From IMG/VR virus record IMGVR_UViG_2693429562_000006: 7,056 bases of DNA; one strand, 5' to 3'. The notes under the pieces were generated by a model. The model did no database searches, was not told the DNA's origin, and was given only the letters and a program-made list of their open reading frames with translations. The stretch comes from a virus. Taxonomy: Duplodnaviria > Heunggongvirae > Uroviricota > Caudoviricetes. The first letter of the stretch is position 1. Every line of letters starts with the position of its first letter. Below, in pieces: positions 1,939 to 7,056 of this stretch. A program made the position numbers and the translations under genes.

Positions 1939-2233
1939 TGGGGCGGGTAAACCTGTCGTAAATTGTGCGATTGAACTGCGGGCCAGAAGAACCAGTCCGA
2001 CCGTTGTGGCACACGTTGTTGCCACTTGCGTGACGGACAATAACGGTGCTTATGTGATTGAGGCTGAGCCGGGGTATTACGAGGTTGCGCTTCACTGTAA
2101 CGGCTGGCAGCCAACCCGTGTCGGGGATATTGATGTGGCACCGACTGATGCACCGGGGACACTGAACGCGTTTCTGAATGCACCAAAGGATGGTGATTTA
2201 CGTCCGGAGGTGATGAAGTGTCAGCGCCAGTGA
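1907..2233 (+). pseudogene. Truncated side tail fibre gene: a diverged N-terminal domain (~102 aa of Stf-like sequence) followed by 6 foreign codons and a stop
   Basis: Begins [12 protein letters not shown], identical to the N-terminus of the intact stf at 2612, then runs colinear but diverged (...PGTLNAFLNAPKDGDLRPEV versus ...[20 protein letters not shown]). Similarity stops after codon ~102 (nt ~2212). The tail MKCQRQ-stop reads into the adjacent IS-like sequence. The listed ATG at 1865 lies inside the lom terminator hairpin, so 1907 is the more likely start. Confidence 0.55.
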
Positions 2234-2462
2234 TATAAGACGGTAATTCGCCATTTGGATTGTCCGCTCCACCCAACATGTTGTTTCCTTAAGGTTCTCA
2301 CACCAGAAAGGACATCAACATGCTGAGCAGAGAGGACTTTTACATGATAAAGCAAATGCGCCAGCAGGGCGCGTACATCGTCGATATTGCGACTCAGATT
2401 GGTTGCTCTGAACGGACGGTCAGACGCTACCTCAAATACCCTGAACCGCCAGCCAGAAAGAC
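2219..2462 (+). mobile_element. Left end of an IS21-family insertion sequence (IS100-like), truncated by the N gap; left boundary approximate (2211-2221)
   Basis: Stf homology ends at ~2212. The sequence from tgtcagcgcc onward carries, about 100 nt in, an ORF whose N-terminus (MLSREDFYMIKQMRQQGAYIVDIATQIGCSERTVRRYLKYPEPPARK) I recognise as the helix-turn-helix start of an IS21-family IstA transposase. Recognition is from memory, not a search. Confidence 0.5.
2320..2462 (+). CDS. istA: IstA transposase, N-terminal 47 codons only (3'-truncated at the assembly gap)
   Basis: ATG at 2320 preceded by aaagga. The HTH-like motif CSERTVRRYL is present. The ORF runs directly into the N run. Confidence 0.5.
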
Positions 2463-2473
2463 NNNNNNNNNNN
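2463..2473. other. Assembly or scaffold gap (11 N)
   Basis: A run of n characters in the sequence. The rest of the IS21-family element is not represented. Confidence 0.95.
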
Positions 2474-2547
2474 TGATGGCGGTCGCCACAGCAACACGTC
2501 TCTGGCGCACTGACGGTTTCATCGTGGGTGTCGGTTATAAATTCTGA
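2474..2547 (+). pseudogene. lom: Second-copy lom 3' remnant (5'-truncated, with an 83-bp internal deletion relative to 1687-1843)
   Basis: 2474-2507 matches 1687-1720 and 2508-2547 matches 1804-1843, ending in the same ...WRTDGFIVGVGYKF-stop. The missing block is bounded by ctggcg in copy A (1715-1720 and 1798-1803). The listed 75-aa ORF 2320-2547 is a chimera reading across the gap. Confidence 0.7.
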
Positions 2548-2574
2548 TTAGCCAGGTAACACAGTGTTATGACA

Positions 2575-2600
2575 GCCCGCCGGTTCAGGCGGGCTTTTTT
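2575..2600 (+). terminator. Putative rho-independent terminator (second copy of the lom terminator)
   Basis: gcccgcc / ggcgggc stem followed by tttttt (2595-2600). The t to c change relative to copy A adds one base pair to the stem. Confidence 0.5.
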
Positions 2601-2611
2601 GTGGGGTGAAT

Positions 2612-5600
2612 ATGGCAGTAAAGATTTCAGGTGTACTGAAAGACGGCACAGGAAAACCGGTACAGAACTGCACAATCCAGCTGAAAGCAAAACGTAACAG
2701 CACCACGGTGGTGGTGAACACGCTGGCCTCAGAAAATCCGGATGAAGCCGGGCGTTACAGCATGGACGTTGAGTACGGTCAGTACAGCGTTATTCTGTTG
2801 GTGGAAGGATTCCCGCCGTCACATGCCGGGACCATCACCGTGTATGAAGATTCCCGACCCGGTACGCTGAATGATTTTCTCGGTGCCATGACGGAGGATG
2901 ATGCCCGTCCGGAGGCACTGCGCCGTTTTGAGCTGATGGTGGAAGAGGTGGCGCGTAACGCGTCCGCGGTGGCACAGAACACGGCAGCCGCGAAGAAATC
3001 AGCCAGCGATGCCAGCACATCAGCCCGTGAGGCGGCAACCCATGCGACTGATGCTGCAGATTCAGCACGTGCAGCCAGCACGTCAGCCGGACAGGCCGCT
3101 TCGTCGGCTCAGTCAGCGTCTTCCAGCGCAGGAACGGCATCAACAAAGGCCACTGAAGCCTCAAAAAGTGCTGCCGCTGCAGAGTCCTCAAAAAGCGCGG
3201 CGGCTACCAGTGCCGGTGCGGCGAAAACGTTAGAAACGAATGCGGCAGCGTCACAACAATCAGCAGCCACTTCTGCATCCACCGCGACCACGAAAGCGTC
3301 AGAAGCTGCCACCTCAGCCCGGGATGCGTCGGCTTCAAAAGAGGCGGCAAAATCATCAGAAACGAACGCATCATCAAGCGCCAGTAGCGCAGCTTCCTCG
3401 GCGACGGCGGCTGCAAATTCTGCGAAGGCGGCCAAAACGTCCGAGACGAACGCCAGGTCTTCTGAAACGGCAGCGGGACAGAGTGCCTCAGCTGCGGCAG
3501 GCTCAAAAACAGCGGCTGCGTCGTCTGCCAGCGCCGCGTCAACAAGTGCCGGGCAGGCCTCAGCCAGTGCCACCGCCGCCGGAAAATCGGCAGAAAGCGC
3601 CGCATCATCCGCTTCAACAGCCACAACGAAGGCTGGCGAAGCCACTGAGCAGGCCACGGCAGCAGCGAGGTCAGCTTCCGCAGCGAAGACATCCGAAACG
3701 AACGCGAAAGCGTCGGAAACCCGTGCAGAATCCTCAAAAACGGCTGCCGCATCGTCCGCCAGTTCGGCGGCGTCATCGGCATCATCGGCGTCTGCTTCAA
3801 AAGATGAGGCGACCAGACAGGCGTCAGCAGCGAAGGGCAGCGCCACGACGGCATCCACGAAGGCGACAGAGGCTGCTGGTAGTGCGACGGCAGCAGCTCA
3901 GAGCAAAAGTACGGCGGAATCTGCAGCAACGCGCGCTGAGACAGCGGCAAAACGGGCAGAGGATATTGCATCCGCCGTGGCGCTTGAGGATGCGAGCACG
4001 ACGAAAAAGGGGATAGTACAGCTCAGTAGTGCGACTAACAGCACTTCCGAGTCACTGGCGGCAACACCAAAAGCCGTTAAGGCCGCGTATGACCTGGCTA
4101 ACGGGAAATACACCGCACAGGATGCAACGACAGCACAGAAAGGGATAATCCAGCTAAGCAGCGCGACCAACAGCACGTCTGAAACGCTGGCGGCAACGCC
4201 AAAGGCAGTAAAAGCAGCCAATGACAATGCTGAGAAACGTCTGCAGAAAGATCAGAACGGTGCGGATATCCCTGGCAAAGACACCTTTACGAAAAATATT
4301 GGTGCCTGCCGTGCCTTCGGTGGGTCAGTAAGCACAACAACAGGAAACTGGACGACTGCACAGTTTATCGAGTGGCTGGATTCTCAGGGAGCATTTAACC
4401 ATCCATACTGGATGTGCAAGGGTTCCTGGTCTTATGGCAATAATAAAATCATTACTGATACTGGCTGCGGTAATATTCATCTCGCCGGAGCTGTCATTGA
4501 AGTAATGGGGATAAAGTCAGCGATGACGATCCGCATTACCACTCCGACCACATCCAGCGGTGGCGGAACAACCAACGCCCAGTTTACCTATATTAATCAC
4601 GGAACAGATTATTCACCTGGCTGGCGAAGGGACTATAACTCCAGAAATAAGCCAACGGCATCAGAGATCGGGGCGCTACCGTCAGGTGGAACAGCAGTAT
4701 CATCAGTTAATCTGGCTTCAAAAGGTCGGGTAGCCGCGCTGACAGACAATACGCAGGGGGCAGCAGGTCTTGAGTTATACGAGGTGTATAACAACGGATA
4801 TCCAACAGCGTATGGAAATATCATTCACCTGAAAGGGATGACAGCCGTTGGCGAAGGTGAGTTACTCATCGGCTGGAGTGGTACAAGCGGTGCTCATGCT
4901 CCGGCATTTATTCGTTCACGACGGGATACGACCGACGCAAACTGGTCGCCGTGGGCGCAGCTTTACACCTCGGCTCATCCTCCTGCAGAGTTTTATCCAG
5001 TCGGTGCACCAATCCCGTGGCCATCAGATACCGTTCCGTCTGGTTATGCCCTGATGCAGGGGCAGACTTTTGACAAATCTGCTTACCCGAAACTTGCAGC
5101 CGCTTATCCGTCAGGCGTGATCCCTGATATGCGTGGCTGGACGATTAAGGGCAAGCCCGCCAGTGGTCGTGCCGTATTGTCTCAGGAACAGGATGGCATT
5201 AAATCGCACACCCACAGCGCCAGCGCATCCAGTACGGATTTGGGGACGAAAACCACATCGTCGTTTGATTACGGCACTAAATCCACGAATAACACCGGGG
5301 CGCATACGCACAGTCTGAGCGGCTCTACAAGTTCAGCTGGGGCCCACCAACATAGTCAGACTGGGCCCAGAACGAATAGCGGGAGTCAACCTACTGGAAT
5401 GTTTCCGGCAGGGAGTACTCAAGTTAGCGGGACTAATCAGGTTGGTATCAGTGGCTCATTAACCAGTGGCACCTCCCAATGGGTAGGTAAATCATCTTCA
5501 GAAGGAAACCATACACACTCACTGTCCGGCACAGCAGCATCTGCGGGTGCACACGCGCATACTGTCGGTATTGGTGCTCATACGCACTCTGTTGCGATTG

Positions 5601-5695
5601 GTTCACATGGACACACCATCACCGTTAACGCTGCTGGTAACGCGGAAAACACCGTCAAAAACATCGCATTTAACTATATTGTGAGGCTCGCATAA
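2612..5695 (+). CDS. stf: Side tail fibre protein, ~1027 aa, mosaic. ATG at 2612 is preferred; an upstream in-frame GTG at 2606 is the ORF-track start.
   Basis: N-terminus [20 protein letters not shown]... and C-terminus ...[31 protein letters not shown] match my recollection of lambda Stf. It contains a long Ala/Ser/Thr-rich low-complexity region (~2950-3990), two fibre repeats, the conserved GAPIPWPSD...SAYPKLA block, and HxH motif clusters in the tip. ggggtg lies upstream of the ATG. Confidence 0.9.
4004..4231 (+). repeat. Two intragenic tail-fibre repeats within stf (about 4004-4099 and 4136-4231)
   Basis: [32 protein letters not shown] and [32 protein letters not shown] are near-identical 32-aa units 44 codons apart. 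Confidence 0.6.
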
Positions 5696-6276
5696 TGGCA
5701 TTCAGAATGAGTGAACAAGCACGGACCATAAAAATTTATAACCTGCTGGCCGGAACTAATGAATTTATTGGTGAAGGTGACGCATATATTCCGCCTCATA
5801 CAGGTCTGCCTGCAAACAGTACCGATATTGCACCGCCAGATATTCCGGCTGGTTTCGTGGCTGTTTTCAACAGTGATGAGTCATCGTGGCATCTCGTTGA
5901 AGATCATCGGGGTAAAACGGTTTATGACGTGGCTTCCGGCGACGCGTTATTTATTTCTGAACTCGGCTCATTACCGGAAAATGTCACCTGGTTATCCCCG
6001 GAAGGGGAGTTTCAGAAGTGGAACGGCACAGCCTGGGTGAAGGATACGGAAGCAGAAAAACTGTTCCGGATCCGGGAGGCGGAAGAAACAAAAAACAGCC
6101 TGATGCAGGTAGCCAGTGAGCATATAGCGCCGCTTCAGGATGCTGTGGATCTGGAGATCGCAACGGAGAAAGAAACCTTGTTGCTGGAAGCTTGGAAAAA
6201 GTATCGGGTGTTGCTGAACCGTGTTGATACATCAACTGCACCGGATATTGAATGGCCAGTAGCACCTATAGGGTAA
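5695..6276 (+). CDS. tfa: Tail fibre assembly protein (chaperone for Stf)
   Basis: 193-aa [37 protein letters not shown]... resembling lambda Tfa. Its ATG overlaps the stf stop in TAATG (5693-5697), suggesting translational coupling. Confidence 0.9.
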
Positions 6277-6362
6277 ATTCGTAATGATTACCTAAATACG
6301 TTATTCTTTTGTTAAAAAAGTGATTTTGCTATAGGTAGGGAGTATGTTCTTGGATTAAGAAT

Positions 6363-6392
6363 AAAAAATCGCCATGAAAGAGCTTCATGGCG
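6363..6392 (-). terminator. Possible minus-strand rho-independent terminator
   Basis: Perfect 9-bp inverted repeat cgccatgaa (6370-6378) / ttcatggcg (6384-6392) with a 5-nt loop. The A6 run at 6363-6368 becomes a T run following the hairpin on the minus strand. Confidence 0.35.
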
Positions 6393-6541
6393 AGTACATA
6401 AACGTACAAAATGTGATGAAAGTAGAGTGGCGTAAGCCACTATATTAAGATATGACAATAGCGAAGAAAAGTAAATAACATTTTATGGACGTTTAATTGT
6501 TAATTATAAAAACTAGAGTGCCCGATATTGTTTATCTTGCT

Positions 6542-6643
6542 TTAAAATAATGTACTCAAACCAAATTTTTGAGCTAAAAGCTCAAATAATATAAATGCAA
6601 TAATAATGTTTAATAAGACAATTAGCTTGCTTTGTATTTTCAT
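6542..6643 (-). CDS. Speculative small hydrophobic ORF (33 aa, MKIQSKLIVLLNIIIAFILFELLAQKFGLSTLF)
   Basis: Hand translation of the minus strand: ATG at 6643 to TAA at 6542-6544. It has a ~18-residue hydrophobic core. There is no clear SD, and AT-rich DNA biases towards I/L/F/K codons, so this may be chance. Confidence 0.15.
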   Translation of the reverse strand: MKIQSKLIVLLNIIIAFILFELLAQKFGLSTLF

Positions 6644-6677
6644 TTCGGAATACTGTTAAGTAACTTTGATGACCCTA

Positions 6678-6706
6678 ACAATAGATCGGAATTTTCTTAG
6701 AGTCAA
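6678..6706 (-). promoter_or_regulatory. Candidate sigma70-like promoter on the minus strand, upstream of the small ORF
   Basis: On the minus strand: TTGACT (complement of + 6701-6706), a 17-bp spacer, then TATTGT (complement of + 6678-6683). This is about 35 nt upstream of the ATG at 6643. Confidence 0.2.
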
Positions 6707-7025
6707 TGGTCACTGTTTTTGCTTGCAAAGCAAATGTTTTGGTGGTTATAAGTCGTCTTAATATAGTCACGCATGCAACTTGTTCCATGCGGAGATTAAA
6801 GATTGGAATATAACGCGAAGATGGAATTAAATTACATTTGCAATAATTAATTTATTATTACTCAATAATTACCGATATTATTATTGTAAATTAATCATTA
6901 GAATGCAAAAAGAAATGTAACGGCAAAATAAGAGGACGATAGCTGAGAAAAAAGCGTGCTTTCCCAATCTGGGGCAAATCACGTCTGAATGACACCTGAA
7001 AACAGGTGGTAGCCTCAAGAAGGCT

Positions 7026-7056
7026 GGTGATGCTGCCAACTTACTGATTTAGTGTA
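7026..7056 (+). mobile_element. IS1 left terminal inverted repeat (element continues beyond the window)
   Basis: ggtgatgctgccaacttactgatttagtgta matches the IS1 left end as I recall it (GGTGATGCTGCCAACTTACTGAT...). Only 31 bp are present. Confidence 0.7.

Follow-up and report, generated by a model that had tools for sequence, protein, structure and literature searches.

That lambda, P2, Mu, P1 and T4 trade tail-fibre segments horizontally is classical knowledge (Montag, 1989; Haggard-Ljungquist, 1992; both cited in PMC3945230), and recombination of lambda with the stf-tfa regions of the Rac and Qin prophages has been shown experimentally (PMC3945230). The lambda side tail fibre, Stf (Ur-lambda stf; orf-401 plus orf-314 in lambda PaPa), occupies the position J-lom-stf-tfa, and E. 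coli K-12 encodes two comparable fibres, StfR (Rac) and the truncated StfQ (Qin). More distant systems include the myovirus fibre S' (gp52) of Mu, encoded inside the invertible G segment, which lacks the Stf N-terminal domain, Ala-rich tract, collar and gp37-like needle, and Sv' of P1, encoded within the Cin-invertible segment and carrying a different tip. The structure with PDB accession 8JU3 is that of the Mu alternative tail fibre (Mori et al., 2024, Virology 593:110017, cited in PMC11915804), and has been identified as gp52 (PMC11821841).

The stf gene and its neighbourhood

The window (the whole 7,056-nt stretch of DNA analysed) covers the tail end of a lambdoid prophage. The gene order is J-lom-stf-tfa, as in lambda, strain NH-21, PhiR42_1 and SPF_0923: the C-terminus of J (70-1176; Pfam Phage_Tail_Tip and Ig_GpJ_C), lom (1244-1843; Pfam Ail_Lom), stf (2606-5695, plus strand; 1029 aa, from the open reading frame, Pfam and PHROG 295 tail fiber) and, directly downstream, the tail fibre assembly chaperone gene tfa (5695-6276, plus strand; Pfam Caudo_TAP, E 4.6e-44), which has 93% DNA identity to lambda orf-194. 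The stf reading frame opens with a GTG at 2606, and the lambda-like MAVKISG start is the ATG at 2612. Stf begins with a phage_tail_N domain (PF08400; aa 3-136, E 1.4e-71) and ends, as lambdoid side tail fibres do, with a Collar domain (aa 800-847, Pfam E 7e-12) and a His-rich gp37-like tip. NCBIfam holds no family for Stf or Tfa. The only Rfam match that we found is a full-length IS009 (RF02111, 218 bits) at 6038-6236, within the tfa coding sequence, with none in the segment 4232-4980.

This segment, which the first-pass annotation had singled out as a likely swapped domain, lies in frame within stf and corresponds to Stf aa 543-792; the Cys-containing peptides quoted for it recur in the translation. 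Its flanks are also as described there: two Phage_fiber_2 repeats (3987-4231, plus strand; Pfam, direct repeats and MAFFT) precede it, and the lambda-like GAPIPWPSD collar begins shortly 3' of it. The two direct repeats (3987-4093 and 4119-4225) are 74% identical to each other, and both copies match the single repeat of lambda; in a MAFFT alignment of Stf proteins, the second copy (~4094-4225) is extra relative to both lambda Stf and StfR. Tandem Phage_fiber_2 repeats thus number two in the window vs. one in lambda, and four in the gpH fibre of a P2-like phage (discussed below). Upstream of the repeats, the Ala/Ser/Thr-rich tract exceeds that of lambda Stf by ~100 aa (3521-3824), an insertion common to K-12 StfR and NH-21. 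A 63-aa open reading frame lies on the minus strand at 4633-4824.

Exchange relative to lambda and K-12 fibres

Lambda Stf and the window Stf have in common the N-terminal domain, Ala-rich tract, fibre repeat, collar, His-rich tip and Tfa, and the 5' part of stf has 88% DNA identity to lambda stf and 95% to K-12 stfR. The claimed module exchange relative to lambda is borne out by blastn, in that unrelated spacers lie between these conserved flanks. Window positions 2502-3520, 3825-4082 and 4119-4212 align with lambda, and the next alignment is at 5003-5329; the intervening 790 nt (4213-5002) have no lambda counterpart, and an unrelated spacer of 439 nt takes their place. At the protein level, this spacer is ~146 aa of the reconstructed lambda Stf (PLDSPALTGTP...GAGENSAF), whereas the window has the second repeat followed by two modules, A and B. 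The two fibres differ as well in the length of the Ala-rich tract and in a hypervariable tip insert that is unlike that of lambda.

K-12 StfR shares its N-terminal 568 aa with the window Stf at 89%, as well as the tip, but has a longer, unrelated central cassette between about the same flanks: DNA identity is 95% up to 4093, the sequences are alignable up to 4272, and homology resumes at 4962. Because homology breaks at 4212/5003 for lambda and at 4272/4962 for StfR, the segment aligns end to end with neither fibre, and on these two comparisons the proposed exchange stands. The outcome is different for K-12 StfQ, a 320-aa remnant without module A and everything upstream of module A, which is collinear with the window over 4731-6277 at 90% DNA identity (module B, tip and tfa). 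Thus, the 3' third of the segment does occur in a K-12 cryptic prophage.

The drop in GC that had been taken as a sign of module exchange is real: the segment has a GC content of 0.504-0.505, vs. 0.614-0.617 in the Ala-rich tract. Recent import of foreign low-GC DNA would account for a fall from 0.61 to 0.50 at the segment boundary, but amino-acid content alone, combined with the synonymous codon usage of the whole window, predicts a fall from 0.617 in the tract to 0.524 in the segment, against observed values of 0.614 and 0.504. The high GC of the tract sits at codon position 2 (0.76-0.86), and the segment, with a GC3 of 0.47, does not differ in this from the conserved C-terminus (0.475) or from tfa (0.46), the last two spanning 0.46-0.48. 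Since the drop is predicted by amino-acid content, and GC3 is the same in the segment and the C-terminus, the change in composition is uninformative on origin; codon-position and amino-acid-expected GC provide no independent signal of a swap. Import of foreign low-GC DNA is refuted by the codon-position analysis, and we regard it as highly improbable; nearly all of the GC drop comes from the amino-acid make-up of the Ala-rich tract, with no foreign-DNA signature. The segment, at ~50% GC, is average for the window.

Modules A and B

The segment is two independent modules, such that the exchange proposed in the first-pass annotation holds but the single domain does not. The first, together with its linker, occupies 4232-4672 (plus strand); module A itself is a knob domain at aa ~546-689 (nt ~4241-4672). 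It contains all the cysteines of the segment, which are three (Cys568, Cys604 and Cys621) rather than the four that had been counted; the fourth Cys of the protein is at aa 22. Among relatives, C621 is conserved in 29 of 30 and C604 in 26 of 30, and C568 is poorly conserved (16/29); in some variants, a Cys has moved by two residues.

Module A already has a crystal structure. A sequence search in line with the one suggested in the first-pass annotation matches module A to the solved Mu S' fibre 8JU3 (phmmer domain E 1.8e-70, ~80% identity), with query positions 71-256 aligned to chain positions 178-363, including the linker and all three cysteines. In an AF2 model of aa 543-792, the core of module A has a pLDDT of 80-90 and module B is poorly modelled; the sole significant PDB match of this model is again 8JU3 (Foldseek E 1.5e-20, probability 1.00), at a TM of just 0.43-0.50, owing to the use of a monomer and to low confidence in part of the model. 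Module A is also found in P1 Sv' (aa 215-358, 82% aa identity) and in the gpH fibre of the P2-like phage vB_EcoM-12474III (~82% identity), in which the gene has 77% DNA identity to the window over the fibre repeats and module A, ending at 4647. Conservation of module A extends from Mu S' and P1 Sv' to fibres of T4-like Vibrio phages. Beyond module A, Mu S' departs from the window in both its knob and its C-terminal tip, the latter with the U' chaperone. P1 Sv' (P1 3862-5419) and the P2-like gpH (vB_EcoM-12474III 1993-3921) each carry one more knob after module A, KAVGWNWNSGVY...FYRSARDGYGFEA.WSEFYTTTRKPSAGDVGAY, and the tips differ, gpH ending in ...INGTWYNVAQV and P1 Sv' in ...INGTWYNAGSI.

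The second part of the segment, a linker plus module B, occupies 4673-4980 (plus strand), with module B a predicted six-stranded beta shaft domain at aa ~700-790. Module B has 64% aa identity to P1 Sv' aa 47-153, and the same match is present in Sv, the other arm of the C segment. When modelled alone with a cleaned alignment, module B yields six strands with a pLDDT of ~90 over query residues 20-105; both AF2 models are monomers, and the real fibre is a trimer. Foldseek matches of the module B model are weak (E 0.03-0.3, probability 0.9-1.0, TMq ~0.55), and the top 13 are all phage fibres or tailspikes (E 0.03-0.2 for the best of them), namely the T4 gp34 C-terminal region, R-pyocin fibres, Mu S' and an Acinetobacter phage tailspike. 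The best fold matches are to T4 gp34 (4UXG, 4UXE and 5NXH; weak E of 0.04-0.08, probability ~1.0, TMq ~0.55), without significant sequence similarity; the Pfam family Gp34_trimer (PF21446) scored below threshold (14.3 bits vs. a cutoff of 27) at aa 656-715, across the A/B junction. At least four different contexts occur downstream of module B: the collar, KPSA..VGA linkers, Phage_fiber repeats, and Mu/P2-type tips.

The independence of the modules is apparent from their distribution. P1 Sv' has both, with B placed ahead of A, opposite to their order in the window, and with Phage_fiber repeats in between. A HMMER scan of 1.84 billion cluster representatives with the segment as query returned at least 1000 proteins at E<=1e-3, with 694 at <=1e-10 and 223 at <=1e-30; the matches, in proteins of 92-3594 aa, cover query positions ~1-150 or ~141-247, and seldom both. 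The allele is common in E. coli: the 749-nt segment is detected in 1383 of 5426 complete genomes (over >=80% of its length in 800; 626 records at >=99% identity), and an stf covering >=80% of the window gene is present in 636 of the 5426. Two phages have the cassette at ~99% identity, namely the lambdoid phage PhiR42_1 (ECOR13; product annotated 'side tail fiber protein Stf') and Salmonella phage SPF_0923, and strain NH-21 has the same allele in a Qin-locus prophage (tfaQ, pinQ, ydfK, ynfT, ydfJ).

Homologues occur in the C segment of P1 and the G segment of Mu, which raises the alternative that the block is the remnant of a switching cassette driven by an invertase (Gin/Cin/Pin), gained by site-specific rather than homologous recombination. 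Sister prophages with the same stf allele carry pinQ/pinR-type recombinase genes right after tfa, and invertase-driven stf gene exchange is mentioned in the literature (PMC3945230). Against this, the breakpoints of the segment coincide with conserved coding linkers, and neither a gix- or cix-like crossover site (with up to three mismatches allowed) nor a serine invertase gene was detected in the window, where the core palindrome AAACCNNGGTTT is absent and there are no inverted repeats of >=30 nt; the sequence after tfa (6277-7056) is AT-rich and non-coding. An invertase-mediated origin is therefore not supported, and we consider such a remnant very unlikely.

Proposed role, distal tip and window ends

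Our preferred reading, to which we assign a probability of about 0.75, is that A and B are shaft or spacer knobs of a lambdoid Stf, upstream of the receptor-binding tip, that have been exchanged by recombination at conserved linkers. The modules would be autonomous trimer-forming knobs, flanked by the Phage_fiber_2 repeats on one side and by the collar and tip on the other, and as structural spacers would most likely determine how long the distal fibre is and what geometry it has, with host recognition presumably performed by the gp37-like tip (aa ~797-1029), folded with Tfa. The cassettes would be traded between phages and prophages via homologous or relaxed homologous recombination at short conserved linkers. 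The breakpoints are at conserved coding linkers, comprising the fibre repeat plus linker on the left, KPTA..IGA in the middle and LYTS... on the right, and the modules are combined freely with different partners. We infer the spacer role and the recombination route from this arrangement; the direction and mechanism of exchange are those suggested by the breakpoints alone.

Module A, alone or with B, might instead be a receptor- or glycan-binding domain that provides a second specificity (e.g., for LPS core or O-antigen) besides the gp37-like tip. A share of module A in binding is possible because in Mu S' and P1 Sv' it is located in invertible parts that switch host range; the strong conservation of its core (C621 and C604) is in keeping with this, and the Stf of Gifsy-1, a lambda-like Salmonella phage, mediates O-polysaccharide-dependent targeting (PMC12312913). 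However, module A is internal in Mu S', P1 Sv' and the P2-like gpH, with a further knob and a separate C-terminal tip beyond it, and thus is not the distal end in any of these fibres; its pairing with many unrelated tips is more in keeping with a structural module than with a determinant of specificity. Binding by module A is on balance unlikely. Still less likely, in our estimate, is the more specific proposal that the Cys-bearing module A is a lectin-like secondary binding site that in lambdoid Stf adds LPS or glycan specificity independent of the tip; if it were, prophage host range in E. coli would be tuned by swapping of shaft modules as well as tips.

The spacer-knob reading leaves host recognition to the distal part of the fibre (4981-5695, plus strand), a tip of the lambda/T4 gp37 type with collar, His-rich needle and hypervariable insert. 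This tip has 70% aa identity to lambda orf-314, and is matched at the sequence level to the tip of T4 gp37 (2XGF; phmmer E 7.7e-15, aa ~797-1029). Inside it, 5323-5509 (Stf aa ~906-968) is a non-collinear cassette, at which homology to NH-21, SPF_0923, PhiR42_1, lambda and StfR is broken, to return at ~5510. This hypervariable region is probably the true receptor-specificity determinant.

The segment is already known, ordinary tail-fibre mosaicism and involves no new biology; because such exchange is classical and the structure of module A has been solved, its designation as a swapped module is a correct reading of a feature already known. Sandmeier reportedly described tail-fibre segment exchange too, in 1992. 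The allele is common in E. coli, annotated, and present in isolated phages. It is a clean example of fibre genes built from interchangeable cassettes common to lambda-like, P2-like, Mu, P1 and T4-like phages, and the natural junctions mapped here are useful for annotation and fibre engineering.

Upstream of the full stf, the region 1907-2606 contains an additional, divergent N-terminal piece of stf (PF08400, 108 aa) that is cut at ~2219 by an apparent IS end with the start of an HTH-containing transposase (2320-2462), which we take to be IS21/IstA-like. The apparent IS end is followed by 11 N at 2463-2473, and then, at 2474-2547, by 34 nt that repeat lom 1687-1720 exactly and run into a second lom 3' end, after which the full stf begins. 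The 1907-2606 junction occurs in no complete E. coli genome, and the region has the appearance of two prophage tail regions joined in a scaffold rather than of a real tandem duplication. At the other end of the window, the AT-rich stretch 6277-7056 (~29% GC, no open reading frame of >=60 aa wholly inside) takes the position next to tfa that pinQ holds in sister prophages; 280 complete genomes contain this stretch at 99.5% identity, with no feature annotated in it. The last 31 nt of the window (GGTGATGCTGCCAACTTACTGATTTAGTGTA) resemble an IS1 terminal inverted repeat.
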